From positions 137,454,001 through 137,518,000 of the forward strand of contig JBITNC010000001.1 in assembly GCA_050084985.1 (NCBI GenBank): a stretch of 64,000 bases of DNA, in the 5' to 3' direction. The notes beneath the pieces are model-generated. The model did no database searches. It was not told the DNA's origin and saw only the letters and a program-made list of their open reading frames with translations. Made by a program: the position numbers and the translations under genes. The DNA comes from Nageia nagi (taxonomy: Eukaryota > Plantae > Pinophyta). Shown here piece after piece: positions 1 through 58,096 of the stretch. How positions within the stretch are numbered: position 1 is the stretch's first letter; every line of letters begins with the position of its first letter.

Positions 1-330
1 CCAATACACAGAGTTATCAGCTATGGAAATCCTGCAAGAAATGGAAGACCATGACTTTGAGCCATTACAATCCAGATATAATCAGCTCCTGAAATTGGAG
101 GAAGATCACAACAAAGCATATGAGTCATTCCAGCATTGCTAGAGCATCGTCAAGAGATGGTTTGATAAGAAAAAGTCTTCCCGGGTGAAGTTTGAACCGG
201 GTGATATTGTTCTCAAATGAGACGAGGAAAGAACAAAACCCAGGAGACACCAAAAATGACTCTCTTTGGAGCGGATCTTATGTCATTACCCAAGCTATGC
301 AACGGGATCTATTTAAAGCATTATCGGGTG
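1..330 (+). pseudogene. Ty3/gypsy (Tat/Ogre-like) integrase C-terminal remnant
   Basis: Manual translation LQEMEDHDFEPLQSRYNQLLKLEEDHNKAYESFQHC*SIVKRWFDKKKSSRVKFEPGDIVLK*..WSGSYVI resembles the post-catalytic and GPY/F region of gypsy integrases; it contains stops. Confidence 0.75.
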
Positions 331-657
331 ATGAGGTAAAATCGGATTCCCCGCAAGGCATTGTATAGTGTAAATACTGTAAATAATTATTTCTGTAAAT
401 GGTGTAAAAAAAAATTATTATTTGCATAGTTTTCAAGAAGAGTTAATAACCTTTAATGATCAAATTTATTAGGAATTTCATAGCCAAGTACTCAGTTCGA
501 CACTAAGCATATTTTGAGCACTCAAGTTTTAGAGCATTCAAAGCAAAGAAATTTCAGAGCCAAGTTGCCTTATGAAAAAAATGAAGTTGCAAAACCTCCT
601 ACTACCCATATTACAATTTTAATGATTACCAGAGGTTCAAGAAAAGGCGAGATTATC

Positions 658-3600
658 ATGGCGACTTCTCAATCATCCTTTGCAACCAAAATAGAGTAAC
701 TTGACATTGACTTACTTTCCTTGCAAGAAGAATATCTCGAGAATGCACCAAGAGTGAACTGCACCGAAATAGGAGTGATCAGTCATATGGATACATGGAG
801 AGCTGACCCTAGCCATGTGCTTTTGAGATTAAAGACTCCTGAAGTCACTGGAAAAGGAAAATCTCTTGCTCATTCTAGGAGAGATGTTATGATTGATCAA
901 GATTTGGCATATTATGTGCCCTATGAGTCTTTCACATGCCCTGAGCTCTTATACTCCCTAACGCACAGGCGTCATCAAAAGGGGTATCAAATAGGCATGT
1001 ACAAGGGCACTGAAGAGGAACAAACTTCAGAACCAATGTTTGAAGCGGTGTTGGACTACTCTCCGGATTCCATTATCCAAGCATTTGCTATTCCAGCAGA
1101 CTGGACATTTCATGTAAAAAAGCAAATTGATTTAAAAAGGGAGAAATTTGATTTTTATATAAATGAAGATGAAATGCTGAACTAGATTAATTGAAGATAC
1201 CAGGATAGCAAGCAATCAAAACTCTTGCCGAGCTATCAAATAGCTCTTTTTCAAAGGAGAAAAGATAGAGAAGTGCTACAAGCACTCGCGGTCATTCTGG
1301 GGAAGAAGACCTAGATAGAAGCAGATGAGGCCATGGTACACATGGCATATAATATTTCAGAATGCCATGTCTGCTATGATTTCCTGGCCTTCATAACCAA
1401 AGAAATTAAGAGATGCTTATTCAAGATAGAGAAGTCAGATTTTAGGCATTCTTCCTATCTCTGATGGCTTTTCATTCATCAAAATTTGGACAAGTTAGTA
1501 GGGACAAGGCTCCCAATTGAGCCAACCAGCTCCAGTGATGCCTTGGTGCCAATTGATTTGATGGTACCAGTTTTGAGTAAGTTGCATGGGTCTTACTATG
1601 AGTTTATGGACAAGTTTTATGCCACCGCAGTAAAAATTGACTGAAAAATTCCCCAGTAGGCTGCGCAAGAGCACAGTAAGAGAGTTACAAGGTGGGAATA
1701 AAATCGGTGACTGGTACTTTTTGAAAGACCGCACCGTGATAATAAGGTATGGATATTTTGATAGAGATGGGTAGGCAAATCTGTGCAATAGAAACTATAT
1801 ACGGGACTGGGGGAAATTTCAAGTCTACTGTAAATATACCGGCATCTACAAAAAATCACTCTGTTAGAGATAGGATGTACAGAAAGCATTACTCAATTCA
1901 TTATACAAAATTTCAAATTAAATAAGCTGGAAACTGCATGGATGTATGACCCATCAGGGGAGATAACCCAGTTAATAAGGACTAGCAAGAAACGTTCGAC
2001 ATTCATACATGACAGTAGGCCCCATATTGAGTATTTTGTAAATAAAACAGAGCAGGAGGCAGAATTATACCTTGATTGGGAATTTGTACCTTTAGATAAA
2101 GCCTAGATGGCTTTGGAAGGAATAAAAAAGTATAGAAACTAGGAGAATAAGAGGTAATATTTTGTCCTCAACCCAGAGGTCCTCACCCAATTAGCATATC
2201 TTGGATGGGGTCCCAATAAAATTCATTATTTCACAAGATTCAGATTTGAATACACCACCAAAATTCACCACATTGAAAGTGAATTATTTGAAAATTTCAA
2301 ATATGACAAATATTGGGAGGTAGAATATTCTAAAGATCCACTACCAGAATTGGGACAGCCCTTCCCTCCTCATTTTCGCGGGAAACCCGCAACAGAGGAG
2401 AGGACAATGCAGAGAAGACAAACAGCTATCATTATTCAAGCTTCAAAGAAAAGGAAACAGGACCCCTCAGATACCACCACTTCTTCCCGAGAACCTTCTC
2501 TTAAGAAGAAAAGAAAGATTCAAACCCTTACTCAAAAAGAGCAAAAACTAGAAAAGGAGCAAAGGCCCATAAAAAAGCCCCGGTCAGCCACAACAAGGTC
2601 ACAGTCACAAGTGATTGTCCCTTCACCTTCAAAGGCATTGGAAGAACTTCCAAGGGTGGTTATGCAAGAAGAAAAAATTCTTGACCCTGAAGAATCTAAC
2701 CAGCCACAAGATACTGAAGCTGGTTGTACAAAACAAGCCCAAGAACAACAGCAAGAGGAAACCCCAGCAGAAGAACAAAGTCAAATTCAGCCAAGCAGGG
2801 AAAGTGTACTTGAGGCCAGAGAAACAGCGGCAGTGGCACCCAGAGGAGGGTCGGGAGATGATGAAGATGATGATGATGAGTTTAATAAAAAGGACTCTAG
2901 CCCAATGGATGACCTTGAAGAAGTAGGTGAGGCAATGGAAGAGGCCGAACCTGAACTAGAGGTCCAGCAATTAACTCCTCCCGGCCACCTCAACCAATTC
3001 AGCAACTTAAGACACCTATTACAGGTGAAATTGTTTCCACTCATTCTTTTATTCCAATTACCTCACAAGAGGAAATAAAATCAATTTTTTCTATACAAAT
3101 TGTAGAGCTCATTGACTACGCAAATTTTGTAAATAAATCTCTTGTGCTGCCTAAGCAATAGTCGAGAATTTTAAGCAAAGTCACAGAGACGGGAGATATT
3201 AAAATTGCTCAGATGCCTTTTAAAGGACATCTGCAGCTGACTCCCACAGCTATAATAAATGTGAGTATGCAGAGTGCACCAACCATTGATCAATCCAAAT
3301 TCCTGGTCAACACTTCAATGGCAGCCGGAAAGAGTCTTCAATCAATAAAGACTAAGATTGAAAAATTGAATAAGAAAGTTGATCAATATAAGGACTGCTC
3401 CCTCAAGGATAAAACAATAACCGGGTTGCAGAACAAGAATAAAGAATTGATTGTAAAGTTGGAGAAGCAAAAAATTGAATTTGATAAGAGCATGGCGACA
3501 TCAAAAGATCAGCTAGACACTGCGAATCAAATAATAGAATAACTTAAAGCTCAGGCTACAGTGGTAGATGCTCAAAAAGTTAAGAAAATTGAGGCCGAAA

Positions 3601-4470
3601 TGCAAAATATCAATGCAACGAATAAAATTCTATCAGAAGATAATGCAAAGCTACTATTGCTGATGAAAAATTTTAGAAAATCCTTTGGTAGAGCAAGTTG
3701 GTGACAAAATGATAACATTATCTCACTTGCACCTACTCAAGTAACAAGCAATTCAGGCCATTAAAGAATTTCATGCTCAATGTGCTCTCCATAAGCAAAC
3801 TCTAGACATATCCAGGAAAGTCTTAGAAAGGATGTAGGTCCAATTGAGGATTTTAACTGAAAAAGAGTTCACAACGATTACCCCAAGGCCTAAGCAGTCT
3901 TATCAGAAAAAAATCCAAGAAATCTGTGATCTCCAGAGCTTGGTATTCAATATGGATCTCAATAAACACCAGCTCATAACAGAGTTGGAATTTGTCAATA
4001 AATTCTTTAATTCTTTAGTAGAAATAAAAGCTCCCAAAATATGGGAAGAGTAGAATGTATAGGGTAGTGTTGCCAATTGGTAGCCAATACCATTCAATTT
4101 TTGGAGCAATCTTTCTTTGAGACACAAATCTCAGATTTATAGCAGATAAATGAATTGGCTCAGGTGTAAAATTTCTACATGCTGGAAAGTTAAACGGTAT
4201 TTTAGAAGGGTTCAAGTCAAATACTGAAAAGATCAAGGCCTCCCTCATCCTCTTACAACCTGATTATAAAGAATTGAGTGAACTCAACAATAGGATGCAG
4301 GCCTTCCTCCCACAAGATATGATGGTAGCAATTGAGACTGCGACTAGATCTTCTTCAGGACAAGTCATTGGAAGTAGCAGTTGACCGGTTCTTTTCTCCA
4401 GCAGGTGGAGAGCCCTGAGAGCCGCCAAAAGATTGTATTCCTCCAAAATAATACTCAAAATCTGGGTAAT
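658..4470 (+). pseudogene. Degenerate extra ORF (non gag/pol) in the 3' region of a gypsy element: globular N-terminal domain, acidic linker, coiled coil
   Basis: ORF fragments 721-1185, 2350-3078 (K/E/Q-rich, poly-D), 3213-3542 and 3844-4053 (heptad-like) lie directly downstream of integrase; motifs align with the ORFs at 11290-14798 and 31396-34297. Confidence 0.75.
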
Positions 4471-4904
4471 CTTACTATTCTTTATTCTTTATTATTTCAT
4501 TTGCCTTAAAGCCTGGAAGCTATGTATAAAAGAGTAACCAGGAAATCACCATTCTTTTAGAGTCTTCGTGTCTTGTATTCTTTAAACCATTCCCCCTATT
4601 CACATTCCTACTCCCTAGAGTGTTGGGAATCATTTTGTAAATAAAGTCATCCAAGAGTTTTGTCTTTCTTCAATACCCAGGAAATATGTAAATAAGGCCA
4701 CCCAGAGATTCTATCAAAACACTTGTGTTAAATTTATATTCTTTTACTCTTTAATAACCATAAGTCCAGAATACCCGAAAATCATGTCATCTTCTCCAAA
4801 TGCACCCAAGAAGTCATGTATCAAAATTGCCTGAAATCATATTTGTCGCCCATGAAAGTCCAAGACTTGTATATATATGCAGAGTTCAACTCTTGAAAAA
4901 TGCA

Positions 4905-5360
4905 AATAGAGCCTGAGGATTTCAAAGCATGACATAATAATTTTCAATCAAAATAAACAGGTCCCAGAACAGATAGTAGGCATCGTAGATTCTTGAAGAT
5001 CATTGATAGAGCTCGACGATTTCAGGAGATGATGTCACATTTTTTTGAGAAAATCAGCAGGCCCCTGAAGAAAACCAAATCATCAGTAGAGCCCGAGGAT
5101 TTTGGAGGATGTCGTCACAAGTTTCAACACAAATCAACGGGTCCCGATCAAATTAAAATGTAAATAGTACCTAAGGATTTCAAAGCATGATTTCACTTTT
5201 TTTTGTAAAAATCAACAGGTCCTGGAGAAAACCAAATCATCAGTAGAGCCCGGGGATTTTGGAGGATGATGTCACATTTTTTGTAAAAATCAGCAGGTCT
5301 CAAAGGAAACCAGATCATCAACAAAGCCTGAAAGAAGAACATAGAGCCCGTCGAGGGAAT
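4905..5360. repeat. Degenerate tandem array (about 80-95 bp units) in retroelement 3' UTR
   Basis: Recurrent agagcccgaggatttYRRagRatgaYgtcaca...aaaatcaRcaggtcc at ~4908, 5008, 5088, 5168, 5245, 5343. Confidence 0.8.
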
Positions 5361-5427
5361 AGAAGAGTAATGTATGAGAAAGAACACCCGGGTCCACTTC
5401 ATCTTAAGTGTTTGACCCCCGAGACCC

Positions 5428-6490
5428 TGTTAATGTGTCAACACCAACTCATTTCCACATAACAGTGGTAGTTCTTCTCGACCTAAGCATACATAATATC
5501 TACCAACCATCATTACTCTGATTACTGACATCCACAGTATACATCATGAAGATTGCAAAGGAGTAGATGAAGGCTAATAAAGCAAACGATCAAATCGTAC
5601 CAATCGATGTGCAATCAAACAACTGCTCAATCTACCACAGTACCGCTCTCAATCAGCAATAGTGCTAAATTCAATCAGCTACAGGGTTTTGGAAGGAGCA
5701 GTCAATGACATGTCAGAAAGATTGCGACTCTATGGACATGGTTGACCGGAAGTTTCAAATCCCCAAAAGATCCAGAAAATTCGGAGAGTTAATGTTGATT
5801 TGAACTTGTATATTGTACAATCTAGCACAGTTGTAACATTTGTGTAAATAACACTGTTGTAGTTGTTTCATTCAATACTAGTAATAATGTATCATAATGA
5901 GATCCAACCACCTAAAAGGGGAGGAAGTTGCATAAATAGCTAGTTTTAGAAATTAGAACGGTCGGATATTCTAACAAATTTGTCTGATCTATAAGAGCAA
6001 TTCATACATGACAATACGAACAGACAATGCTTTGCTCTCTTGCAACAAAGTGGCTATTATTGCTTTTGTGAATGTTATGTATGAAATGTTTACTTCAAAT
6101 TGTGGTTGTGTATAGTGATTGCGAAACCCCAAAGGTGAGGAAGTTTGCTATTCTTAATCTTGGCTATAGATTGTCGCCTATGCTGCAATGCTCGGTTGTA
6201 AATTTCTTGTTTTAGTTGTTCGTTTATTTATCTCTTTCCTGTTACTCTTTACCTTTTTATCCCTTTCCTCTTACTTTTGATCTTCAACATAGATAAGAGC
6301 AGGCTTATAACCCGAAGATTGAGCAAAAGATTTACACGAGCGCATTCCCACCACCTTCTGCTCTTTCAAGGAACCTATTGTTGCGGCAAGTGGAGAACAC
6401 GACCAGCCCAAACCCTTGAGGTTACACTATATCGATCAACAAATACCCAGTTTGTTTGCTATTTGAAGGGTATATTTTTGTGCTAAATCA
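5428..6490 (+). mobile_element. Probable 3' LTR of the element at 1-5427
   Basis: Begins tgttaatgtgtc and ends gtgctaaatca; TATA-like cataaatag near 5931; follows the 3' UTR repeats. No clear PPT and no TSD pair visible. Confidence 0.5.
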
Positions 6491-9780: not shown

Positions 9781-11289
9781 TGAGTTCCCGAAGATCCCTT
9801 TTGATTCTGTTGGGGGGTAAATGGTGAACTATTTTCATTTTTAAGAATTGAAGAATGTGAAGGGGAACTAAAATTAAATGGATTCACATATGTACCTTGT
9901 TGGTATGTTTTTCTTTCGTAGTTCAAAACATGCACAAGACTTGGAGGAAACAGTGTTACTTGCTTCCGCCTAAAAGGACTGGTTACCCCAAGCGCTCAGT
10001 AGTCAAAGATGTATGTTGTTAACCGTATAAAAGGGAAATACAACGTCGGAGTTCCCTTCCACAATAAAGAAAGACTACAAATGTGAATGAAAGCGATGAA
10101 AGATCACAAATGCAAGGACAAACACAGGGATAAATACAAAGGAATACAAGGAAAAGGAAATGACTTATGAAAGTATCATCAATGATGTAGTGTCTCGGCA
10201 GGTCGTTTTTAGATTCATTAAGGTCAACGCACTCACTATCAAGCTAGGCAACAAATAGCAAATATGCTCAAATCACTACCAGACGAGAGCAAGGAGTTGT
10301 AGGGTCTTGGTGGAAGACTCGGTGGAAAGGGTATAAGTGAGGTGAGGGCGTGAGTGCAAGAACCTAACCGAATGATATAAAGACAAGTTATAAGCCTCAA
10401 AATATATCCACTTACATGCAAATCATGCAAAGAATGAACTCAAACCTACTCAAATGAATATCCAGTATGCAATTCAAGGAGAGAATCATTCAAATATGCA
10501 TAATCCCATAAATGATATTCTCACAATATTGACTTTGTAATATCATTCCTCAAAGGAAACACATTCATAATGATATTCAACAATAAACATGCATAAAACC
10601 CCTTATGCAACGAACCTCTATGCAATGGAATGTGAATGCTAAAGGATGCAATAGCTCAAAAATTCTTGTACACATAAAAGCTTATAGCCAGCATCTCAAA
10701 ATATAAGAGCCTCAATATGCAATATTTCCATTAAGTGCAAAGTCCCACATGTGCAACAATGTGTAAAATCATGCAATAATTCAAGTGCAAAATTGCAAAT
10801 ATCCTCCAATGCAAATATCCCAAATGCCAAAATCCCCTTCTAAATGGCCCAAATGGGGTATAAATAGGCCACTAGAAGTGTCGCCCTAAAGGTATCGAAT
10901 CTAATGTGGTGTGCACACACACAACACACATACTGATACAAAATCAGATTGTTCACACAAAACTATGCAAGTGGCACCTAAAAGCTAACAAAATATAAAT
11001 GCCACCGTCAAAATGCATCTAATCTACCTCTAATCTATGCAATAGCGAATCAAACATGCAATAAAAGGTCTGAAAAGTCTGACATCTAAACCAGCAGGAG
11101 CAAAACCTCATCCTTGCACCGGTCAAAGCCATGAATGAGTTTGACAGATTTGATCTGGCGGGAGAAAAACCTCATCCCTACACCAATCAAATTGAATGAA
11201 ATAAAGTCTGGCATAATAACCAACATCAAGTATGCATTAAACAAATGAAAAGATACCACAGACAGGATCTATGGGTGGATCAGACCTAG

Positions 11290-14200
11290 GCCAGATCTGA
11301 TCCGATATTGGCGAATCTCCACTCCTCGTTGATGAGACTGTACTACTCAATGGTCTCCTCCAAGAATGCCACAATCTTTCGTACACCCCTAGAAATCATG
11401 CCAACGATGATACCATTCTGTCGAATATAATCCTCTATTTTCTTCGATGTAGCCTAAATCTGGTGTCTCCAGATGACCATCCGCCTCTCATGGACGATGG
11501 GATGCCCCACCTTCGGCAAGCTAAGATCATCAACATCAAGATGTTCCTATATCAGGTTCTGAGCCTCAGCCAATACCGCCTCCTTTCTCACATTGTTGTC
11601 TTCCCCTTGGAACTTAAGCTGATAGACATATTCCCTCATTTGTTGTTCAACCTCCTTTCTCAAGGGGATTTTAATTTTTCAGGGCTCCATTGCACTTTTC
11701 AAGTCCATGGTTCAACCAATCGTGATGATAGGTGAACTCGTGGCAATAAATCAACTTTTCAAGATTTAGCATAAATATGCTGCAGATGGGAGACATTGGG
11801 AAGATGGCTATCTAACGTGCTAAGGTGTGTTGAGATTTTCCCCTTGAGGTCCCTCATTTCAACACCTTTAGCAAGGAGCTTGTAGATTCGATAAGACAAT
11901 TTCTCGATGGCCTATATCACTTCCTTCTTCAGCTGCTCCATCATTTCCCATCCCTCATGGAAGGAAGTCTACCTCTACAAATCTAAGGGGGTGGCGCTAA
12001 CTTTCTGGAACTCCTCGATGATTTTTTTGCTAGCCATGAGTTCTCTTTTCAATCTCTTCACCTCCTTTTTGGCTTCGTAGCCTTCCTGCTCCATGACTAC
12101 AACATTCTGAGTGACTATGTGTTTTTAGGCTATCAATCCTAGTTTCACAAGCATCTTGAATGTCTCAATGATGCAGTGTTCTGCTCTTTGAGGGTGTTTC
12201 TCCTTTGAATAGCAATGGCTGATGGAGATCTCCTTTCGAGAAGTGGAGACAAAAGTATCAACCCTTCGAATTTTCTTGTCATCCAAAAGTTCGTCTTCCT
12301 CATCTTCAGAGCGCAGGTCCTAGTCTATATCTTCATCATGAGCCATGCTCATGCTGAGGGCTCTAAGGCAGGCATCCACATCAAGATCCAGATGCTTAGT
12401 TACTGGCTAAGGAGGAAATCTCTGAACCAGCAATCTTCCTCTGTCAATCTTCTTGACCTCTTTCACTGGAGTGGTCTGAACTACGGTAATCACCTTACTG
12501 CTTTCTCTTCTTTTTCTATTCCTCAGTCTCTCCATCTTCCTCATATCCTCCATTTCCGCCTATAAATATGCCCTTATTCTATGGCTGGGGAGATCTCTCA
12601 TGGCCCGTCCTCTTTGTGGAGGACTTATGCGAAGCGGAGGGGACTTCTTCCTATGCTCAACAAGACACGGTTTGGAGGCGGCAGTCTCTCTAGCACACTT
12701 TTCTCCAACAATTTGGAAATCATCTTCATATGTTCCAACGTCACTATCTCATTGTCATCCGGGAAAGTTTCAATCTCCATCTCATCGGGTGCAGAAGCAC
12801 CTATAGCTACATCCTCTTGCTCAAGGACACTGGTAGCATCATCATCATCTTCTTATTCTTCTTTTCTTCCGCCACTTTCTGATTCTTCTCCAGAATCTTC
12901 CACTGCATGGTCAAGTTCTTCATCAGTCTCTTCATCGGAAGAGGAAGTAGAAGTAGAACACTTAGAACTGGAACTGGAACTTGGTTGCAAAGGGGGAACT
13001 TTCTTTCTGCATCCAAGAGAATGAGTATGTCTGGAAGGGACAACTTCAGTAGGTGAATCACTAGCACAAGCCTCACCCACTACATCATCTAGCACGTCCG
13101 AGGGGAGAGCGTGATAACCAACGTCCTTAAAATCAACTACCACCACGCTACGCTTGCTAGGACCCGGGATCAATTCCCTCGGAGCCTCTTGCCTCTTCCC
13201 AACAAGGAGTAAGGGCTTCTTGCCACGTAGAGATGCAGTACAAGCAAAAGAATGTGACATCTTGATCCTGAGAGGGACCTCCTTTGATTTGGACTTTGTG
13301 GTTCAGGATTTCTGAGGTGGTTTTTCTGTTTGAAGTGGAGCCTTTTTCTTTCTCAGAAGAGCATCTATTCGTGCAATCTCCTCCTTATCCTGCACGTTCC
13401 TATACCTCTCCACATTTCCTAAAGACTTATGCGCAAATGCAATAGGTTTGTGGAATGCAGTATCATAGAAATGTGCAATTACACCCTTAGGATCATAGTT
13501 TCTCGTAGCCACCTCCTTGGAAAAGGCACACTACTGTAGCTCCTTCATGTGGGTTGATTTCACCCATGTCTGACATACATATTTCGATATTGAGATAGGC
13601 AAATTAATGGTCCATTCTTCTTCTTCCAGACTTTCTCCTTTAAGAACAAAAGTTGCCTAGCAAACTCCATGAGGATTAGTTTGTCACTAATGTATCTTGG
13701 TAGGAGTAGGGGTCATTCCTCTGAGCCATAGACTCTGATGTATGTATAGTCAGCGTTTTGCAAAAAGAAATCCGCATGTACACTGATAGTTCGGATAGCC
13801 ACATCAGAAATCCTCTTTACTACGGACTCCCCTTTGATATCTTTGTAGAAATCATACTCCCAATGATCAATTCTCTCACAAAAATATTGGAACTTGTTCT
13901 GGTACCACCACTTTGGATAAGCTCGCCACACAGGAATGCTCATTTGCCCCGGATATCTTTCGTCAACCAATTCCTGGATCTAATCTTGCCATGCAGCAAC
14001 AAGTATACAAGCTAAGAGTTCATATAGAATCTCTTTGAGGAGCCAAAATAGGCTAACTGGTGGCATAGGGCATCATTGATTACCCCAACCCATCGGATAG
14101 CCTTCCCCAAACTAATAACTACAATGAAGCCTGTGAACTCCCTCCTATACCTGGTGTCGTTCTCCTGACCAGTGACCCTTGACAAGAGAATGATCAGCTT

Positions 14201-14798
14201 GGCCACAACAAGTAGGAACTCCTCTCTACATGCGCTGATCAACCTTTGACCTTGAAGATTCTGGTAAACTTCCAACAACCAGAGCCAAATATAGTCCCCA
14301 TGTCAGGCTGTGGAATCATAGAATTCTTCAGAATATGCCAATGTGTAATCGTCCCCATATCTTCTCCAGCCAATGGTTGCTTCAATTCTAGCAGGGGAGA
14401 AATTCGTGATTATGTTTCCCTCTATGTCCTGTAGGACTTTTGTCATATTCACACTTTCTGGCTACCTCATGGAACAAGTCAGGAAAAGGTACTGCAAGAG
14501 GCATCATAGCGGCATTGAACAAGCCACATGTGTGGATGAGCTCTTCTGATAAGTACTCCTGATGGAGGCTGTGGAGGCTAATGTTTGGATAGGGTCTAAG
14601 TTTCCCAAATCTGTAACACCAACAAAGATGTGTCTCCTCTTGAATTTGGCTTCAGGGAGCCCTGGTCTCTCTCTCTCTTGAAATTCAATCAAGCTTTCTT
14701 TTGAAAGCCGGGTCATCTAGATTTTGGTTACATCTCTCAAATAGCTTGCCTTGAATCTTCTTGGACCTTAATGGAGGTAGTCTGATACTGGAAGCCAT
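11290..14798 (-). pseudogene. Degenerate ~1100-1170 aa accessory ORF inside the giant LTR
   Basis: Collinear fragments 14504-14716, 14012-14278, 13713-13970, 13303-13512, 12853-13260 continue into an acidic and coiled-coil part down to ~11290; strong peptide similarity to 31478-34297 (e.g. FTGFI.VIS.G.AIRW...DALCHQLAYFGSSKRFYMNS). Confidence 0.85.
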
Positions 14799-15047
14799 GC
14801 AAGAATGTCTGAATACCCCAAGAAATCCCTAAAGACAAATTTGGACATTGTGAAAGATGCAACAAAGCAGAATCAAACATGCAAATTTGTGTTGTAGGAT
14901 GTCTAGCACATCGAATGATAGTTGCTTCCCCCTTTTATATGAGATGCATGGAGGGTGAATGCATGGCAGGGTACATGCTTGCCACTTGTCTTCTTCTCCT
15001 CTTCACTCCTGGCTTCTCACACTTGACCAATTTCACCTTGCAATTAT

Positions 15048-16428
15048 GGGCGCAGTTTTGGATGAGTGCTTGAGCACAGCTTGAAAAGCATGCGACTAGG
15101 CCTAGAGTCACTTGTCAAATTTCAGGGCATAATTCTTCACCTCAATTGTGGGCGCATGGATCTAGATGAGTGCTTAAGCATAGTTTGAAAAGCATGCGAC
15201 TAGAATTAGGGACTACATTGAAATGCCTTAACTCAAAACAAAGCTAACTGGATGCACATCCCCTAAAACACCTTATTTCTCCCTGGCGCACTGTTTTAGA
15301 TGAGTGCAAAAAGCATGCATTAGGAATGGTTCGACTGGGGGAAAGGATGGCAAATCTGAAATGAAGTGATTAAAATGACTAAGGGGTGCGGTGATATTTA
15401 TAACATTATGAACTGCCATGTGTCACCTCTGGGTTGGTCAAACTAGGGGTCAAATGACGAAGCAAAATCAAGGGCGCATGGTTTTAAAGGAGTGCAAAAG
15501 CATGTGATGAAAAGCATGTGGCTATGCTTTTAAATACCTAGCCAAATTCCAAGTTGACACCAAAGCTTAATTCCTGGTCGCACCGTTTTGAAAAGGTGCT
15601 AAACCATGCACCTTAATCCTTGCGCCTGGCATGCTTCCCAAGACTAGAAATTCAAAAATGTCAAAAAATGCAAGTTTGATATAGGTCGCATGTTTTGGAG
15701 AGGGTGCTTTCTCTCCCTTAGTCCCACGCAATGCTCCAGAAAAATTTGCAAACTGAAATACTAAAGCTAACTTCCCTTTTATAGCCTTCCGGATAGGACA
15801 AGTGTCGCCATATGATAGGTGCAGGAGAGGGTCCAATGCATGAGTCTCCACTTGTCAACAAATTGGACCCAACACTTAGCCAATTTTCACTTCATGAATC
15901 TAGTCACACGGTTTGAGCAAGGTGCAAAAGCACTCACTGGAAAGCATGCGACCAGCCTTGGTTGTTCGAAAAAATGGCTAAGTCCTTTTCTTCCTAGTCG
16001 CATGGATAGAGTAGGGTGCAAAAGGACTCATTCGAAAACATGCGAAAGGCTTTCATGGCCTTAAAAATGACTATGTATGAGACTTCCTCCTTGGTCGCAC
16101 CCTTTGGGGTGAGTGCAAAAGCACTCACTTGAAAACATGTGACAGGTTTTCCACACAAGAAAAATGCTACATATCATTTTGGTTGAGTGCAAAAGCACTC
16201 ACTTGAAAATAGGCGACAAGCTGAAAACATGGTTTTTCTTTGCATTTTGACCAAAATGACACCAGATATGAAATGCAATGAGGGAGAGACGAGTTTCTGC
16301 AACATGAAGGACCTCCAAAAGTACAATTCTAAGACAAAAGATGCAAGTAATAAGGATGAAAATGCAGCAAGGGGCTGGTCGCACAGTTTGAGTTGGGTGC
16401 AAAAGCACTCACTCAAAAACATGTGACT
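15048..16428. repeat. Array of ~11 imperfect ~53-bp palindromes (GGTCGCA...TGC-AAAA-GCA...TGCGACC) with non-identical spacers
   Basis: Units at ~15048, 15150, 15284, 15471, 15575, 15683, 15901, 15995, 16092, 16175 (partial), 16376; the 16092 unit has the perfect inner stem gtgagtgc-aaaa-gcactcac. Confidence 0.85.
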
Positions 16429-16859
16429 GAGGGAAAATGTGCAATTCTAACCTGGCTTGACCATGAAGGAGCAATTTAAACATGTTTCCTAAAGCTAGAC
16501 CAAAACATATGCATTTCCTTTGACAAATTACTTCCATGCATTTCCTTTTTTTATTTCGAGGGTCCTCAAAATGCAAATTTTTTTTTTTTTTTTGGGGGGG
16601 GTGGGGGGGTTGTGCAGGCACAACATAGCTTCTTCTTGGATGCCCCTTGGTGTTAGAGTCCACCTTTGTTCCAATGGCCTCGTTCTATCCTCTTGTGGTC
16701 TCATGCTTGAGGCGACCTCTTCTTTGGTACTTAATGTGGTTGCCTCCAATCTCTTAATGGAAATTTTGGTTCTTATCCTCCTTGATTCCTTGAAATGTGA
16801 TTTCACAGCCTCCACTATTGAACTTGAATTGCAAGGTTGTGTGGTTGGTGGTGTAGTCT

Positions 16860-17245
16860 CCTAAGGATGCCAACCATTATACCCCTAAGATGACATGAGG
16901 TGAATCACCCAATCAAAAGATGAAGAAATCATCTTCAATAGTGTAGTCTTTCAAACTAAACTTCATATTAGGCACCTACTTCCTACAAGGTGTGATGTTT
17001 CCATTTCCAACTATCACATCAAAACCCAAAAATGGTTCGATCTTCATCTTCTTGGCGGTGGCTAGCTTCTCATAAACAAAGTTGTGGGTAGCACCCCCAT
17101 ATATCAAAACTAAAACCTTCTCTCCCAAAACTTCTCCTGAAACTTTGATAGTGAAGTATTGATTCATACCAATCAAAGTAGCTAATGTTACTCCTCTTGA
17201 TGTTGTTCGTGTAGTAGACTTTGGATTGGATCTTTGGATGTTCAT
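16860..17245 (-). pseudogene. Aspartic protease remnant (first copy) of the non-autonomous gypsy element
   Basis: TIKVSGEVLGEKVLVLIYGGATHNFV...DDFFIF*LGDSPHVILGV*WLASLG; the catalytic D is replaced by Y. Confidence 0.85.
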
Positions 17246-17314
17246 GGTTCTATATGATGGCTCATCCTCATCATATTCATCAATATCTTCATGTTCCTCA
17301 TTTGATGACTCTTC

Positions 17315-18060
17315 TTATGAAAAAACCTCAATGTAATGTATGGCTCCCTTGCCAAGGCAACAGTGACTCGATGTCCAAGGTTGTTTGCAACTAAAGCATA
17401 AATTTTTCCTTCTTAGTTCATTTCTTTCATTCCTCTCTTCCTTGGTTCTTCTTGTATATGTGATGGCAAGAGCAAGCGTGGGTTTCCCACTTGATGAATC
17501 TCTTCTTGGTGGTGACATGTCCTTCTTGAATGGTGCTCTCATGCTAGGTCTATGGTATGGTGTCACTTGCTTGGTCTTGGGAAGAGTAGAGTCTTCAAGA
17601 GTAAGAGCCCTCTTGATTACATCTTGTAGAGTAGGTGGGTCAAAGGCTTTGACCAAACCCTTCAATGGTTTCTTTAAGTCCCTCCATAAAGACGAAAGCT
17701 ATCCTCCTATCTGACACATCCGAAACCATAACTAAAACTCTTTGAAATTCTTCAACATAAGTGCCCACAGTTGTAGTTTGTTGAAGTGTGGCCATCTCTC
17801 TAAAGTATTCTTCCTCATATTTCCTTTCAAACCTGTCAAGAACCCTTTTGCAAAATTCTTCAAAGTCCCCAATCTTGTCATGACCCAATGTGGTGAAGCC
17901 ATTGTGCCACCACTCATATGCTATGCCATCAAGGTAAAGGGAGACAAATTTGATTGCATCCATTTCTTTCATAGGGCAAAGAGTGAAGTAAGTTTGAAGC
18001 TTTTGTATCCAAGCCATGGTGTTTTCCCTATTTCACCATTGATAAATGGGAACATTAGAT
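17315..18060 (-). pseudogene. gag: Ty3/gypsy (chromovirus-type) gag with zinc-knuckle remnant
   Basis: AWIQKLQTYF...AYEWW...LQQTTTVGTYVEEF...FMEGLK (Retrotrans_gag-like) and ELRRKNLCFSCKQPWTSSHCC; frameshifted. Confidence 0.9.
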
Positions 18061-20151: not shown

Positions 20152-22705
20152 TTTTTTGTAAGTAAAAAAAAAATATGTATTAATTTATTGGAATATCAAA
20201 GTACATCTCCTGCCTTTTCAGGCATAAAGTATTTTGAGCCATGTTTTAACAGTGGATGTGGGAATATGCTCCCTCGCATCAAAACTACTACAACATAATA
20301 AGCATAAAAGAAGCCATGCAAAGCAATAACAACTGGATCTACATGCAGCAAGTATTACTGTCATCAAAGGAGAAAATTGAAAAGAGAGTTCCGCTGATCC
20401 ACTAAGACTACCATCTAGGAGGATGTCCATAACAAGTGAAGTCACCTTTGTTGAAAGCCCAGTTAGCCATTGCATCTACCACCCTATTCTCTTGTCAAGG
20501 AATGTGCATAAATTCAACTGAGTTGAATCTCTGCTGAGTCAGCTGATTTTTTTCCACCACTCTTCCTTCTCTCTAATCTATATTCTTCTGATTGTGTTTC
20601 CCTAACAAGTGATTTATCAGGGACTCTGATCCAGATGAATTTTTCTCTAGCCCAGTTTCATGGCTTCATGTAATCCACTCAAAATAGCATAACCCTCTGC
20701 CAAGTTATTAGTTAGAGTACCTACATACTCTGAAAAGAGAAAAAGAGAACCATTCGAGAGTCGGCCTATTCCCCCATACTCGCTTTCCCTGGATTCCCCA
20801 TTGAAGCTCCATCTGTATTTATCTTTCCAATTCCTCCTAGGGGGGTCTCCATTTCCCAGTTCTGTTAATTCTGTGGCCATTTGTGGTTGTCCTTTGTGGT
20901 GTAGCCAGCATTAGGGTAACTTGAAGTCAGGATAATATCTCTATCCACTTTTGGCTAGGGTTCTAGGGGTGATTCAACAGATGTTGGATTGTTTCTATTA
21001 TGTTGGCTATTGCCAAACATAGTAGTTGTCCCTATGCTCTTGGTTAAAAATTCTGTTATTCCTTTCCTTCCATAGATTCCACACAAGGAAAGTCGTACCC
21101 GTTCAAATTAATTGTCTAGTATATTGATCACCTTGTTCCTACTTAACCCATTCCATCCATGGGTGCTCAATGAATGAGATTCTAGACCATTGAATACCTA
21201 GTATGGCTGCCAAGTTCTTACACAATTTAATTGTGATAGAACATTCTACAAAGAGGTGGCAAATTGTTTCCTCATACTTCCAACACATTGCACACCTAAA
21301 AGGCCCATGGATCCCTTTTTTCATATGTTGTTTACCTATTAGCACTCTTCTGTGAAGTAGAAGCCATATAAACAAATGCACTTTAGGCCATAGCTTTTGT
21401 GCCCATAGCTGCTTGAAAAAATCTTTTAGTGGGCTGGGGTTGCTTTGTCAAAGAGACGAGTATCTAGAGGACACTATATACTTTACTTCTTTCTCCCCCA
21501 TCCAATGGAGTCCTCCTCCTGAGACATGAAAGGGATCTCATCTAGAGTATCATATACATTTCTTCCCTCTATACCTCTGAGGTTTGAACTGGTCATTTCA
21601 CTACTGGAATCTGTTGTCTTTCTACCTCCCAAATCTTAGTTTGAGGTTTGTAGAAGTTTGCTACCTTTACCCAATTGGTATTCAAGAGATTCTCCATAAC
21701 TAACCCACAAATTAGTTCAGAAGTTTGCCTTCTATCCATTGTGGATCACCCAGAATCGTCATTTCTTTATCATTTCCTCCCCTGTTCTTAGTACCACTAG
21801 GATACGGGATCCTCTGTTGGGTAGTGGATAACAAATGAGCTCTACCGGGGTTTTATTTTCAGCATATCTCACCCTAAGATTCTTTGCCCATAATGCCTCA
21901 AACGAATTCAACAGTCTTTAGTATAATTTAGCAGCCAATGCCTTGTTCTTTTTGGTTGCTGAGCAGAATCCTAAACCTCCCTCCTTTTTGTGAATTCATA
22001 AGCAATCCCATTTTAATAGTGCATTCATCCTTCGCTCCATTCCAAAGAAATCTATGGCTAATTTGATCTAATTCTTTTAAGATCACCTTTGGAATGTCAG
22101 GAGATATAAATGGGAATTGCCAAGAGAACTGCTTTGACCAAAGTCATCCTCCCTCCTATGGAAAACCATCTATTCATTCATTTTCCTAATTTGGCTTTTA
22201 CTTTTTCTGTCAGCCAAGCCTATTCCTCCTCCTTTTGCCTTCCTTCTTTTAGAGGCATGCCAAGATAGGTGATTGGAAGAGAGGCTTTCTTATATCTCAA
22301 TTTCTCTCAAACTATAGTTAGAAAAATCGGAATCAGATCAGAATCGTTTGGTTGCAGGATTCTGGTTTTTTGAAAAATTGGACAAAATCAGCAAAAAAAA
22401 ATGAAGGAATTTCTTCGGTTTTAGCTAAATCTCAAAATATCTCAAAAAATCGGATAAAATCGGCCAAAAAAGGGGATAAAATCGGCAAAAAATCATTGAC
22501 CGATTCAATGCTGATTTTTTAGCGAAAAATCACGATTTTTTGCTAGTAAAATCGAAATCGGAAAAAATCAGATAAACACTTATTTAAAAAAAATCAGATC
22601 CGATTCGAATCAGATCGTTTGCTTGAACCGATTCCGATTTTATCCGATTCCGATCCGATTTTTCCAACTATGTCTCAAACCATTGTCTTTTGCCTAGGAG
22701 AACTC
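20152..22705 (-). mobile_element. 5'-truncated L1-clade LINE (RT C-terminus, zf-RVT, RNase H, A-rich tail)
   Basis: SLPITYLGMPL...IGGRMTLVKAVL...RFLWNG; HLFIWLLLHRRVL..FRCAMC...ETICHLFVEC; TNNLAEGYAILSGL; FMHIP*QENRVVDAMAN; minus-strand AATAAA and A-run ending near 20152. Confidence 0.9.
22313..22672. mobile_element. hAT-type MITE inserted in the LINE
   Basis: TIRs (c/t)atagttRgaaaaatcgg / ccgatttttccaactatg; perfect 8-bp TSD tctcaaac (22305-22312, 22673-22680); subterminal aatcgg repeats. Confidence 0.92.
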
Positions 22706-29140: not shown

Positions 29141-29485
29141 CATAGTTAGAAAAATCGGAATCATTTGGTTGCAGGATTCAGATTTTTTGAAAAATCAAAT
29201 AAAATCGGCAAAAAATCAACATGGAGAAAAAATGCAGGAATATCTCCTATTTGATATTAAAAAAAATCGGTTTTAGCTAAATCTCAAAAAATCGGCAAAA
29301 AATCATCAACCGATTCAATGCTGATTTAGCAAAAAATCGGGATTTTTTTTGGCAATTGAATCGGAATCGGAATCGGAAAAAATCAGATAAACACTTATTT
29401 GAAAAAAATCGGATCCGATTTGAATCAGATCATTTGCTTGGCCAATTCTGATTTTAGGCAATTTTATCCAATTTTTCTAACTATT
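29141..29485. mobile_element. hAT-type MITE, same family as 22313-22672
   Basis: catagttagaaaaatcgg...atttttctaactat; internal sequence aligns with the 22313 copy; TSD only partial (gtgtgtaa/gtgtgatt). Confidence 0.85.
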
Positions 29486-29825
29486 GTGTGATTCAAATTT
29501 TGCGGAGCCTCATAAAATCAAACATAAATGCATGAGAGAAATTTTGTCCAAGGGAATGCATGCATCATATTCCACTTAGAGGAAACATGTTAAAATTTGC
29601 ATGTTCATGAGTCATTATGGTCAATAAATTGCATTTTTCATTAGGCACATGCCCCCTAAAACGTTCACCCTCCTTCATGCTGCATTTTCAGCGTTCAAAC
29701 TTGCATTTTTGGTCCTTCAATTGCATTTTCAGGTCCCCTCATGCTGCAAATTTCATTCCCCTTCATTTGCATTTGCATTCAAAGTAATTTTGGTCAAGTT
29801 ATCAAAGAAAAATCGTGTTTTTCCC

Positions 29826-31030
29826 CAGTCACATGTTTTGAGGGACATGCTTTTTGCATGTCCCCAAAATGGTGCGACCAAGGTTGTGAACTTTCATACT
29901 TAGAAAATTTTTGCAAAAACATAGAAAAGGCCCAGTCACATGTTTTGAGGAACATGCTTTTGCATGTCCCCTAAATGGTGCGACCAAGGAGGTGGATGTC
30001 CAATACTTAGAATATTTTGAAGTCATTCAACTTGCAAGGAAGAAAGCTAGTCGCATGTTTTGAGGGACATGCTTTTGCATGTCCCCTAAATGGTGCGCCC
30101 AACTTTGAGCAATAAAATTTTGCTAAGTGTTGATCCCGTACGTTGACAAGTGTGGCTACATGCATTTGACCCCCTCTTGCACCAATCATAAGATGACACC
30201 TGTCCCATCTGAGAAGGCTATAAAAAGGAGGTCAGCCTCAATTAGTCTATTTGGAAGGTTAAGTCCAAAGCACTGTGTCCCCTAAAACGTGTGCCCTGTT
30301 CCAAATTGCATTTTTCACGTCATTTTCATTATTTTTTGGAATTTCCTACCTTGGGAGGTGTGCCACAAGCTAGTCGCACCATTTTTAGTACATGCTTGGG
30401 CATTCCCCCAAATCCATGCGCCCAATCCCAGACGTCCTGGCCCAAGGGTAAAATTGACTAAGTGTTGGAATTCAAGAAGAGAGGGCCAAGCGCATACTTT
30501 AAGGTGCATGCTTTTGCACCCATTCCAAAGGGTGCGACTATGAAATAGAGCTTCAAAGTGTTATTCTTGGGCGCACACATTCTAGTACATGCTTTTCCAC
30601 ACCTTCTAAACCATGCACCCTTCACTCCACTCCATCATTTCACCTCAATTTTGACCAACCAGAGGGTGACACGTGGCAACCTAGAAGACTATAAATATTA
30701 AGCCACCCCTTAGTCATTTTCATTACTGCATCTGAACCCTAGTCGCACCATTTCAAGGACATGTTTGAGCACTCATCCAAATTGATGCACCATGGAGGAA
30801 TAAGGAGTTAGGGTTTTGTTTGTGCATCCAGTTAGCCATTTTTGGCTAAGTCATTTCATTTGAGACCTAGAAACTCTGGCGCATGCTTTGCAGTACATGC
30901 TTTTCCACTCACCCAAATCCATGCACCCAGGTGTGAAGTGATGTATTGTGCTCTAAAATTTGACTGACCCACGATCCAATTGCATGCTTCCCAGGTAGTG
31001 AAAAAGCACTCACCTCAAACCGCGTGCCCT
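29826..31030. repeat. Array of ~9 imperfect ~53-bp palindromes in the second giant LTR
   Basis: Units at ~29826, 29934, 30048, 30371, 30488, 30568, 30740, 30876, 30978; inner stem gggacatgc-tttt-gcatgtccc; outer agtcRca...tgcgacc. Confidence 0.85.
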
Positions 31031-31395
31031 GGGTTTACAAGTTGAAATTGACTAAGTGTGAGACAGTAGGAGTTGAGAAGAGAAAGAGACAAGTGGCAAA
31101 CATGCATCCTACCATGCATACACCCTCCATGCATCCCCTATCAAAGAGGGCAACCTTGATTCATTTGTGTTGGACGTCTTGCAGCCCAAACCTGCACATT
31201 TACCCCCTTTTTGTTGCGCCCTCTAAGACATCCAATTCGGTACTAGTCGATTTCTAAGGCATTTCCAACCATTTTCAGTCCTTTTCCTACACATTTTTCA
31301 GAATTCAAAGCTGACTTCAAAAGTGAGGCCGTCCCCACTCAAGGCCAAGAAAGTTCAAGGGCAGTTGTTTGAAAGACATGTGACTAAGAACCAGA

Positions 31396-34297
31396 TGACA
31401 AGGCTCTTGAAAGAGAGCCAGATAGGTCCTCCATCAGCAAGGAGGACCTATCAGATGAGCTCATCCACTCATGTGGATTGTTCAATGCCACCATGATGCC
31501 TTTTTCAGTTCCATTTCCTGAATCGTGTTACGAGGTAGCCAAGAGATGTAAATACAACAAGAGAGTCCTCTTGGACACAAAGGGGAATGTGATTATGGAC
31601 TTCTTCCCCAAAGGAATTGAAGCAGCCTTTGGTTGGAAGAGATATAGAGATGACTACACATTGGCAAATTCAAAGGAGTTTCATGATTCCACTGCCCGAC
31701 CTGGGGACTACATTAGAACGTGGCTTTGTGAAGATTAATAGAATATTTAGGGCCAAAGATTGGTTAGCACCCGTAGGGAGGAATTCCTCCCTACAATGGC
31801 CAAGTTGATCACTTTGTTGTCCAGAGTCGCGGGTAAGGAAAATGACCCTAAGTATAGAAAGGAGTTCACAGGGTTCATTGCAGTAATCAGCTCGGGGAGA
31901 GCTATCAGATGGAGTAAGGTGATTTGTGATGCCCTATGCCACCAGTTGGCTTACTTTGGCTCCTCGAAGAGATTTTATATGAACTCCTATCTTGTGTACC
32001 TGTTGTTCCATGGCAAACTCAAATTCAGATGAAAGGTATTTGGGTCAAAAAGGCATTCCTGAGTGGCGGGTTTACCCAAAGTGGTGGTATCACAACAAGT
32101 TTCAGCATTTCTATGAAAAGAATGATAAGTGGGAGTACTCCATCTATAAAAACATCAAGGGGGAATCAGTCGTGAAGAGGATTTCTGATGCTGCCATTCA
32201 GGCCATCACTGCACATGTAGATTTCTATTTGCAGTATGTTGATCACACATTCATCAGAGTCTATGGCTCAGAAGAGCAACCCCTACTCCTGCCTAGATAT
32301 GCCAATGACAAGCTCATTCTCATGGAGTTTGCTAGACAGTTGTTGTTTCTAAAAGAATGAGTATGGAGAAAGAAGAATGCAACTATCAACTTGCCCATCT
32401 ACATCGCAAGTTATGTTTGCCAGAAGTGAGTTAAGGCTAGCAACATGAAGAAGCTGCAACAGTAAGTCTTCTTTAAGGAGATGGCAGTTACAAATTATGA
32501 TCCTAGAGGTGTGATTACTCATTTCTATAGCACTGCATTCCAATAGCCAATCACTTTTCAGCATAAATATTTAGGGAATGTGGAGAAGTATCGAAATGTG
32601 CAAAATGAGGAGGAAATTGCAAGGATAGATGCTCTTTTGAGCAAAAAAAAGATGACACCCTTCACGCAGAAAAACCACCTCAAAGACCATGCACTGTGAA
32701 AGATAGATCTAAAGAGGTCCCACTCAGGATCAAGTCGTCCCCTCCTGCCAGTGTTGTGCCTCCACAAGATAGAATGCCCTTGCTTCTTGCTGGGAAAAGA
32801 CAAGAAGCTGCAAGGGAGCACATCTCAAGACCTAGCAAACACAACGTGCTAATGGCCGATTTGAGAGATGTTGGTTATTGCACTGTCCCCTTGAGAATGT
32901 TGGAGGAAGCTTGTGTCAATGATTCACCCACTGAAGACATTCCTTCCAAACCCACTCGTCCTCCTAGATGTAGGGAGAAGGTTCCCCCACTACAACCAAG
33001 TTCTAGTTCTTCCGAGCATTCTACTTCTTCTTCCGATGCAGAGATTGATGAGGAACTCGATCGTACAATAGAAGGCTCCAAGGAAGAGTCAAAGAGCCAA
33101 AGAACTAATGAAGAAAGTCGTGGTGAAGGAGAAGGAGAAGAAGAAGATGATGATGATGATGATGATGATGATTATGCTGATGAGCAGTACCCCGAACAAG
33201 ATGATATAGTTGTAGGTGCTTCTACACCTGATGAGATGGAGATTGAAACTCTCCCAGATGATAATGAGATTGTGGACATTGAGACCTATGATGATGAGGT
33301 CCGAATTGTCGGAGTAAAGTGTCCCAGAGAGGTGGGTGCCTCCAAGCCCTCTCCTGCTGATCACCAAAAGAGGTCACCCTCGTCTTCCCAGAAGCCCTCT
33401 ATGAAGAGGACCAGCCATGAGAAATCCCCTCAACCACGAAAGAAAGGCATATGCATTGGTGGTAATGGAGGAGATGAAGAAGACGAGGGGGAGACCAAGA
33501 AGTAGAAAAAGAAGAAAAAACAAGAGGAGCATTAGGGCAAGGAAGTTGCCCTTGTTCAATCTACTCTAGCCAAAGAGGTCAAGAAAGTTAGCAAAGGCAG
33601 ATTGTTGGTGTAGAGGCTTCCTCCCTAGCCAGCAACCGAACATTCAGACGTTGAGCTGGATGGTTGCTTTAGAGCCCTCAACATGAGTACGGCTCACTAT
33701 GAAGAGATAGACCAAAACCTGCACTCTAAAGATGAAGAAGAGGAGCTTTCCGATGGTGAGAAGATTAGAAAATTTGATAAATTTGTTTCCATCTCCCGAA
33801 AGGAAATTTCCATTAGTCATTGCTATTACAAGGAAAAGCATCCTCAAAAGGCAAAAGACTATTTGATAGAGACGTTTAAGATGCCTGTGAAGTTGGGACT
33901 AACAGCACGCAAGCACATAGTTACCCAAAATGTTACAGTCATGGAATAGAAGGGCTATGAAGCCAAAAGGGAGGTGAAGAGACTGAAGAAGGAACTCACG
34001 ACCAGTAGAAAAATCATCAAAGAGTTACAAAATATCAATACCACCCCTCTTGATCTGAAGAAGCAAGCCTCATTCTATGAAGGATGGGAGTTGATGAAGA
34101 AGCAACTGAAGAAGGAGATGATGGAGACCATTGAGAAGTTGTCTTCTCAAATTTATAGCCTCCTCGAGGAAGGTGTTGAAATTCAAGATCTCAAAGCCCA
34201 AATCACAGCACACTTCGAGAAGTTTGACAGCTACCTTCCTAACGCCACCCACATGCAGCAAATTTTTGTTAACAGGCCTCAAAAACTGTTCTACTAG
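31396..34297 (+). pseudogene. Degenerate accessory ORF of the second giant LTR (C-terminus lies in the inverted block at ~35070-35420)
   Basis: ORF fragments 31478-31738, 31760-32032, 31992-32360, 32696-33505 (with (GAT)n poly-D), 33683-33949 and 33974-34297 are collinear with 14798-11760. Confidence 0.85.
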
Positions 34298-39600: not shown

Positions 39601-40069
39601 CAAAATGGTGCGAAATTGCCTAAGACACTCTTGAGATGTGATTGGAGAAAATTTGCATCTAGAAAAATCTTAAATTTTTAAAGGTTCAAAGTGATGTGAA
39701 TAGGGGGAATTCACACCTATCACACCTCTTAACATTATAATCCTTGAAAATGATGTAAACCGGTGTATTTTGCATGTCAAATGACTCTTACCCCTTTCAA
39801 GACCTCCAAATGTTGCGACCAAGCTATTTTCGCATCTCCTAAGCATCCTAATTTTTTTAATGCCCAAAAATAGTGAGCTCAAGAGAAATTCGCATCAAAA
39901 TGGAGTCTTGCATTTTGCCTATGAAATGGTGTGCTCAAGTGCAGTTCACATCTATAAAACTTCCTACTTTTCTAAGATCTCCAAATGGCGACCAAGCTTT
40001 TTCGCACCAAAAACTTATCTTACAATTTTAGGTCTCTGAAATGTTGTGCCCTTTCCAATTTTATGACCT

Positions 40070-41144
40070 TGTAATGTCCCCAATTTCGAGAAACCTTGTT
40101 GAAAGCATAACTTCCGTCACAATCCATGGATCGTCGATTTGTCTTTTAGAATGAATAGAGAATCTTGTGCCAATCGTTTTGACAGGTCACACAACATGGT
40201 TCCTTCAAGAAACGAGGAAGATATGGCCTTTTGATGATTCCCCCAAGCCAGTTTCCTACTATCGTGCGTGCAGGTGTCAGTTTATAAATATTCTATTTAG
40301 ATTATGAGTCTTTGTTATTTTATAATAAAAGTGGGCCATGTTTTGTAATAAGGAAATATATTATTCCATAATTACCCAACGTCTAGCTTAGGAGGGGTCA
40401 TTTTTCAATTAAGAGTTATTTATATTTCTAGGTTGGGTCGACCAACCACTAATTAGAATGGGACTTCTATAAAAGGGAAGTGAGCACCTCATTTGAAGAC
40501 ATCATCTTGTGTATTCGATATTCGATCATTCGGAGCTTAGGGATGCTTTCTTTCTCTACCTTCTAGGGCTTAGGACTACTCCCTAGCCTAGAAGTGGCTC
40601 ATCTACACTTCTACATCTCTTGGAGAGCTTGCACCTATCACTCTTGCCACTTGGAAGCTTGTGTCAACCATTGGGAGACATCTTCAGACTTGCGCCTAGC
40701 TTGGGAGCCTTTTTGGGACATGCGCTAGCCTTGAGGAGTCTAGTTTGAGCATTTCAAAGTCTTGGGATTTGCCTTAGAACTTGTTACAAGCTTGTTACAT
40801 CCCTATACTTATTCTTGGTTCATTATTGATGATATTGACTCTCATATTGTGTCTCGAATGTAAATGAATGTTCCTATATAATTCTGCTATGCATCTATCT
40901 TCTTTGTGCATGGGAATGTATGCGAATTGAGTACTTCTGGAGCTATATTTTTGTTATGTAATAGATCTGATTGTGTCCTAGTTTTGGTCATATTCATATG
41001 TTATAAGAGTTTTATATCAGATTTGGCTAATGTTGTTATATTCCAGTTTGAGCGCATATTTTGGATGGTTAATGAGCATGTTCATTGATGCCCTAATTTG
41101 TGAATGAATGCTAAATTGGATAATCCCTAGAAAGGTACATTATA
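40070..41144 (+). mobile_element. Solo LTR (1.07 kb), same family as 7012-8099
   Basis: tgtaatgtcccc...aggtacattata (terminal CA decayed to TA); perfect TSD gacct (40065-40069, 41145-41149). Confidence 0.92.
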
Positions 41145-57940: not shown

Positions 57941-58096
57941 CTGCAAAGTAGAGTGAACAATTATTAGCATCTTTCACGGCTTGAACCTTTAATCATTCAT
58001 TGTTCCTTTCAGATCTCTTAATAATGTACAAAGAGTTTTATAACTTTAACAATCTTAATAACAAATACTGTACATACATAAATATAAAGTGCTTAC

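Follow-up and report, generated by a model that had tools for sequence, protein, structure and literature searches.

In Nageia nagi, an array of spaced 50-bp palindromes lies directly upstream of a broken open reading frame (ORF) and may be read, at a probability of roughly 45%, as a set of promoter-region binding sites in a gypsy-type solo long terminal repeat (LTR). Such sites would be recognized by the dimeric accessory protein of the element itself, in keeping with the logic of VANC and the PMD proteins. The window, by which we mean the whole 64,000-nucleotide stretch analysed (contig JBITNC010000001.1, forward-strand positions 137,454,001 to 137,518,000), is the source of all four arrays that were analysed in full. 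The array of the first copy (array A) is a genuine, constrained and unusual feature. It occupies window positions 15047-16427 on the minus strand, which is the coding strand of the ORF, and comprises ten complete dyads with plus-strand starts at 15047, 15151, 15285, 15473, 15577, 15903, 15997, 16094, 16168 (a degenerate unit) and 16378. A lone 23-bp half-site at 15685-15707 on the plus strand completes the array, scoring 28.1 bits with a position weight matrix (PWM) whose training median is 25.0. Both this count and the position of the array, upstream of the ORF when its coding strand is read, agree with the initial annotation, which had claimed about 11 units.

The dyad core follows the pattern GKCGCA-N14-TGC-N4-GCA-N14-TGCGMC. 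Some 17 nt had initially been placed between the triplets of a unit of about 53 bp; the measured values are a 50-bp core and 14 nt in each arm of every one of the 18 units listed from copy A and its sister copy B, as found by a geometry scan that permitted 13-16 nt per arm gap and penalised departures from 14. Half-site spacing across copies, which the same annotation had named as a check, is thus conserved. The centre of the dyad measures 4 nt in 16 of the 18 units and 5 nt in two. With the geometry fixed and a match required at 14 or more of the 18 motif bases, the window holds 15 matches (eight in array A, seven in copy B and none outside them), while 20 simulated dinucleotide-Markov windows gave a mean of 0.0. 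Across 38 half-sites, information is concentrated at positions 1-6, 10-12 and 20-23, the intervening columns being almost unconstrained. Comparing copies A and B over six orthologous unit pairs gives 81-83% identity in the motif blocks and 58% in the rest of N14 (Fisher p 2e-5), a result that is partly circular in that the motif columns were picked from the same units; at synonymous sites of the ORF the two copies differ by 50-72%. No match to the degenerate dyad pattern was obtained from the prokaryotic genomes scanned. Exact-pattern matches in metagenome contigs came from two loci in bacterial coding sequence dissimilar to the window and were set aside as chance.

Sequencing reads extend the view to other genomic copies, which at 16424 and in the degenerate unit come nearer to a perfect dyad. 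Loose read ends accumulate at unit borders, where differing spacers are joined, and duplications and deletions at the level of the unit are visible. Read depth is far higher over units than in spacers (for example 2,539 versus 11-351); this excess stems in part from multi-mapping, as each copy holds about ten units, and it is not taken as a measure of conservation. Where the CpG sites of the motif have departed from consensus, 12 of 13 changes are methylation-type transitions, and the copies studied were therefore not lastingly protected.

The spacers of the arrays measure 24-276 bp, a broader range than the 30-170 bp first proposed. Their supposed dissimilarity holds when they are compared with one another, since within a copy only 2 of 64 pairs align, namely 0 of 36 in copy A and 2 of 28 in copy B that beat all 200 shuffles; for the most part the spacers are thus no leftovers of a tandem repeat. 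The dissimilarity fails between copies, where spacers of A are 69-80% identical to their positional counterparts in B in all four cases compared. Consequently these are not free, CRISPR-like spacers, and the constraint extends to the whole region and not to the dyads alone, as it would in any promoter. Three TATA-like boxes of putative function sit on the minus strand within or directly after array A. The first (15778-15783) belongs to a promoter-like module within a spacer and recurs in copy B at 30219. The second (15397-15402) recurs in copy B at 30690, where its spacer aligns with that of the first, and the third (14934-14939) lies some 140 nt upstream of the ORF's first ATG and is degenerate in copy B (31139). 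CCAAT- and G-box-like motifs are also present in the spacers. Blocks, spacing and boxes together form the pattern of putative protein sites in a promoter region, and the fixed spacing with conserved blocks fits sites for binding on double-stranded DNA.

Array and ORF are carried by a discrete insert, as had been anticipated. Element A (9898-16625, minus strand) is 6,728 bp long, begins with TGTTG at 16625 and ends with CAACA at 9898 when read on the minus strand, and consists of the array at its 5' end, the ORF and a 3' non-coding part. It is flanked by a 5-bp target-site duplication, the left copy of which (9893-9897) matches the right copy (16626-16630) at four of five bases; in a sister contig the match is five of five (at 16628). 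Contigs in three of four public runs contain the empty site and join 9895 to 16629, omitting 6,733 bases that correspond to element A plus one copy of the duplication. All four runs cover the element over its full length, with reads at its 5' end stopping at a nearby homopolymer. Air metagenomes make up three of the six runs in which the sequence was located, two of them among the four just mentioned, and together with the nested retroelements they fit a plant of large genome, probably a gymnosperm. The element sits within a gypsy gag-protease region. That host element (18032-16629 and 9895-9380, minus strand) encodes gag and then two different aspartic-protease regions in tandem, with no reverse transcriptase before a polypurine tract (PPT) and LTR at about 8100. 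In the insert (9898-16625) the depletion of CpG and CHG is weaker (0.38-0.42 and 0.54-0.76) than in the gag-protease part of the host (16630-18030; 0.16 and 0.15). A contig from run X3 with a depth of 163 spans the end of the insert into the host (16175-16847) at about 96% identity, and the empty-site contigs have a depth of 149, these depths being contig means; the filled site, too, may exist in several copies.

From its termini, duplication and empty site, element A is likely a gypsy-type solo LTR, which bears out the initial annotation in part. Against a firm assignment to LTRs, the window showed neither a PPT nor a paired LTR of this family, and a primer-binding site (PBS) follows none of the four related 3' ends. 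A separate question is whether the container could be a self-standing TG..CA element moved in trans by an integrase and not a solo LTR, which we consider unlikely. The missing PBS would fit such an element, as would the failure to identify any gag or pol of the group in the window and the target duplications at both A and the shorter relative C. Solo LTRs are moreover rare in Pinaceae, at about one per 4 to 7.5 full elements in the accessible text of PMC5751070, ratios that may not apply to this host. The insert itself speaks against a self-standing element through its combination of TG..CA ends, a 5-bp duplication and an inverted end of just 5 bp, which is the signature of an LTR. A further objection comes from a probable homologue of the ORF found after an integrase-like tail, described below as element E.

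The ORF (11350-14798, minus strand, left end approximate) spans about 1,150 codons and is interrupted by stops and frameshifts in both copies A and B. Its layout consists of an N-terminal domain of about 450 amino acids, an acidic low-complexity middle and a predicted coiled-coil tail. Between the copies, differences at third codon positions are about double those at second positions; in four segments dN/dS comes to 0.16, 0.06, 0.26 and 0.13, values obtained by a simple count near saturation (pS 0.50-0.72). The codon-position bias and these ratios indicate that the ORF once encoded a selected protein, as the initial annotation had assumed. HMMER returned 100 proteins at E<=0.001, including one repetitive artefact (P0065) that was excluded from the alignment of 84 of the matches (A1). 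One homologue of 1,010 amino acids shows a similar succession, with an N-domain followed by a charged middle and a long tail of helices. Cluster look-ups for 20 of the 100 matches gave singletons, two of them named 'hypothetical protein'. Pfam yielded no matches for the window frames, the 84 members of A1 or the 15 members of A5; specifically, no DNA-binding domain, PMD, DUF1985 or Transposase_28 was matched in the window frames and homologues, and no TRP28 in the window frames. A PDB sequence search with the ORF family found no match, nor did a fold search of two models (pTM 0.51 and 0.40) against PDB and BFVD. The best VIA Z scores, 3.6 (rmsd 3.3, 57 aligned) and 3.1 (rmsd 3.2, 51 aligned), belong to unrelated proteins in a library that may lack PMD and VANC structures, and the homologue model is confident only for residues 300-450. 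Word-indexed protein searches returned the query alone, three single-protein queries found no relatives in viral contigs, and none of the listed sequencing runs that match the window is RNA. The ORF product is predicted to start with a helix, beta-hairpin and helix and carries a W-x5-I/L motif, features that may resemble PMD, DUF1985 and Transposase_32.

Relatives of element A elsewhere in the window show how the array and the ORF relate to each other. The sister copy, element B (29485-35819, plus strand), is 72% identical over the ORF and has nine dyads at 29828-31028, three of whose units form a 115-bp tandem repeat with an 82% match. Its 5' limit is approximate and its 5' end is interrupted by a MITE; relative to A, its 3' part (34300-35422) is inverted, which cuts the tail of the ORF and leaves a short inverted match at the breakpoints. 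The MITE, of about 345 bp, occurs in two copies (29141-29484, the one in the 5' end of B, and 22314-22671) and is hAT-like; it has terminal inverted repeats and seems to have produced an 8-bp duplication. A more distant relative, element C (41590-44695, minus strand, 3.1 kb), has related termini and a perfect 5-bp duplication, and no trace of the ORF was found in it. Within a 182-bp repeat it carries six dyads (42826-43778) in a 6-14-3-4-3-14-6 layout with inner triplets TGG/CCA. When scored with a PWM trained only on copies A and B, five of these dyads have one arm placed at 1, 6, 9, 30 and 36 among 121,858 other positions, with the sixth at 1,386 and the opposite arms ranking poorly; the A/B symmetry axis ranks best of 60 in C. 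Two further features of this element were noted, an imperfect inverted repeat TGTTGG..CCAACA of its own in the terminal 70 bp (41590-41659) and a second, different repeat array at 43960-44480 with a GAGCTCAAA core at a spacing of about 100 bp.

Adjoining it, element D (37450-41589, minus strand, 5' limit approximate) shares its 3' terminus with A and B and is interrupted by another LTR at about 40070-41140. It holds about 14 weaker dyads of 50-bp span (39043-40050 and 41314-41442) with inner triplets TAA/TTA, and none of its frames matches the ORF family profile; a short degraded reading frame after the array (38480-39000, minus strand) likewise gave no match to the profile. The motifs of C and D were first spotted by eye. 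Outside A and B, the outer motif derived from those copies peaks at a span of 50 bp, with five matches (four of them in D) against a mean of 0.35. Symmetry in D is weak, at 9 of 23 pairs where chance would give 6, and its axis comes second of 60. The 3' terminus is common to all four elements, the local end alignments alone being borderline against shuffles. Also common to all four arrays are the outer CGCA block and one T/A tract, and the inner triplets differ by family with both arms altered together. On sequence evidence, then, the dyad geometry is kept across families as the inner letters change on both arms. Since arrays are present in the ORF-less elements C and D, the array does not depend on the ORF in cis.

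A probable distant member of the ORF family, element E (660-4400, plus strand, limits approximate), follows a stretch that resembles the tail of an integrase by eye only, with no Pfam match. Its ORF aligns to the family in three colinear pieces of 7.2, 7.1 and 8.2 bits, scores reached by 0, 1 and 0 of 300 shuffles, and neither pairwise hhalign nor BLASTP gave a significant result. A probable homologue in this position suggests a family of gypsy accessory ORFs. The region of element E (1-5443) also has an array of a 78-bp repeat near a CAACA end, in which no clear dyad of the A/B kind was found. Elsewhere in the window, an uninterrupted stop-to-stop frame of 264 amino acids at 58041-58832 (minus strand) looks like an exon of a host gene and has no Pfam match.

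Several other processes could have produced such units. They might form RNA hairpins or DNA cruciforms, an idea already raised by the initial annotation, with a role for instance in packaging, strand transfer or the generation of small RNAs; the present results leave this improbable. On the minus strand, 13 of 19 units do form folds of 10 or more dyad pairs when RNA parameters are used, as any dyad could, and the inner-triplet differences between families are complementary. An arm, however, pairs with its own partner (6.05 of 14) no better than with arms of other units (6.10 of 14; p 0.58), and the covariation score of 0.108 lies below the 0.127 of shuffled sets, 463 of 500 of which scored at least as high (17 units, two with 5-nt centres having been left out). 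Covariation between own arms was absent from all four arrays (permutation p 0.97, 0.80, 0.39 and 0.99), RNAalifold found no consensus pairs in the dyad units and Rfam gave no matches; the power of these tests is limited by the 17-19 decayed units. With no covariation between the arms of a unit, selection for an RNA hairpin is unsupported. A similarly remote prospect is that an ancestral inverted repeat spread by neutral tandem amplification and has been decaying since. The 115-bp tandem repeat of B, the 182-bp repeat of C and the rearrangements of whole units in reads are what amplification would leave behind. Against neutrality stand arm lengths that are constant while the spacers vary so widely, a core conserved above its own N14 and above synonymous sites, and a geometry that persists across families otherwise barely alignable.

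The dyads could also be enhancer sites for a dimeric factor of the host in an LTR promoter, with an unrelated ORF that borrows the promoter, a reading that deserves consideration though we think it rather unlikely. It would account for the arrays of the ORF-less C and D, the outer CGCA block and T/A tract common to all four arrays and the TATA-, CCAAT- and G-box-like motifs of the spacers. GCATG, which we take to resemble the RY element of B3 factors, is 7-8 times denser within the arrays than outside them and points the same way. A single conserved factor, on the other hand, would not predict family-specific inner triplets on both arms, and a 50-bp dyad with 23-bp half-sites is oversized, as the usual sites of plant factors are far smaller. 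The joint change of both arms between families is what would be expected of a homodimer with a family-specific preference. An element-encoded binder has to contend with the lack of any ORF trace in C and of a profile match in D, so that nothing binds an array to an ORF on the same element.

Under the preferred reading of sites for an element-encoded protein, each dyad would serve as a double-stranded site for a dimer, most likely of the accessory protein encoded just downstream, which in each arm would contact the outer GKCGCA block, the T tract and the inner triplet. The array would grow and be shuffled by duplication of a unit together with its spacer. Once bound, the protein would maintain promoter activity or protect the promoter from silencing, the role that VANC and PMD-C proteins play at their motifs, and relatives that lack the ORF would draw the cognate protein from an internal region or in trans. 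The locus offers a testable pair, that is, a selected protein family and a candidate target of rigid geometry with family-specific letters. It bears on the question of how LTR retrotransposons multiply in heavily methylated giant plant genomes and on the function of their accessory ORFs, which the accessible text of PMC7264820 treats as an open question. One may go further and speculate that a protein-plus-target code is widespread among LTR-type elements of plants, combining an undescribed dimeric family with family-specific 50-bp dyads. Gene and targets would then lie within one LTR-like unit, so that solo or self-standing copies would carry a complete cassette for anti-silencing or self-activation. 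We hold this broader proposal to be unlikely; if true, the code would be the retrotransposon counterpart of VANC. A gene of 1,150 codons within an LTR-like unit would be unusual among plant elements. A literature search over titles and the starts of abstracts, weak in that it reached few subscription journals, found no description of an ORF inside a plant LTR or of such dyad arrays.

Known systems offer several points of comparison. The hr palindromes of baculoviruses with IE1 and the E2 sites of papillomaviruses are arrays of imperfect palindromes with fixed spacing that are bound by an element-encoded dimer, and the sag gene of MMTV is an ORF inside an LTR. These are animal viruses and their likeness to element A is by analogy. 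Closer in kind are the Retand, Tat and Athila elements, which are gypsy elements with an extra, possibly DNA-binding ORF and family-specific repeat arrays. In the accessible text of PMC11963269 and PMC7264820, their ORF and arrays lie in the internal region between pol and the 3' LTR, whereas here both lie within the 6.7-kb TG..CA unit. Retand itself has an antisense ORF with TRP28 and LTRs of 0.3-1.2 kb according to the same sources; here there is no TRP28 match, the repeats are spaced dyads and the window contains no reverse transcriptase linked to the element that could place it by phylogeny.

Turning to the PMD modules, MAIL2 associates with a palindromic promoter motif (M2M), PMD-A is retrotransposon-encoded and PMD-C resembles the DUF1985 of VANC, as far as the available parts of bioRxiv 2024.09.27.615353 and PMC13547354 indicate. 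Both MAIL1/MAIN-M1M and MAIL2-M2M rely on a promoter-proximal motif that sustains expression, and the palindromic M2M can be likened to the present dyads by description (bioRxiv 2024.09.27.615353). Those modules, as there described, are host genes with single motifs and a PMD detectable by Pfam (PF10536), whereas the present case is an array with no match to PF10536 or PF20167 (Transposase_32). In VANDAL elements, the accessible text of PMC5735166 reports that VANC binds short motifs multiplied by tandem repeat formation, which likewise places a transposon accessory protein beside non-coding, tandem-multiplied motif arrays that differ between families. Arrays differing between families are present here too, in A, B, C and D with their family-specific inner triplets. 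The VANC targets reported there are motifs of 8-9 nt on Mutator-like DNA transposons, in contrast to the 50-bp dyads in a TG..CA unit with a 5-bp duplication found here, where the ends are of LTR type and neither DUF1985 nor, in the tested insert frames, a transposase was matched. By analogy, the finding would resemble systems of the VANC and PMD type in the way that it works.
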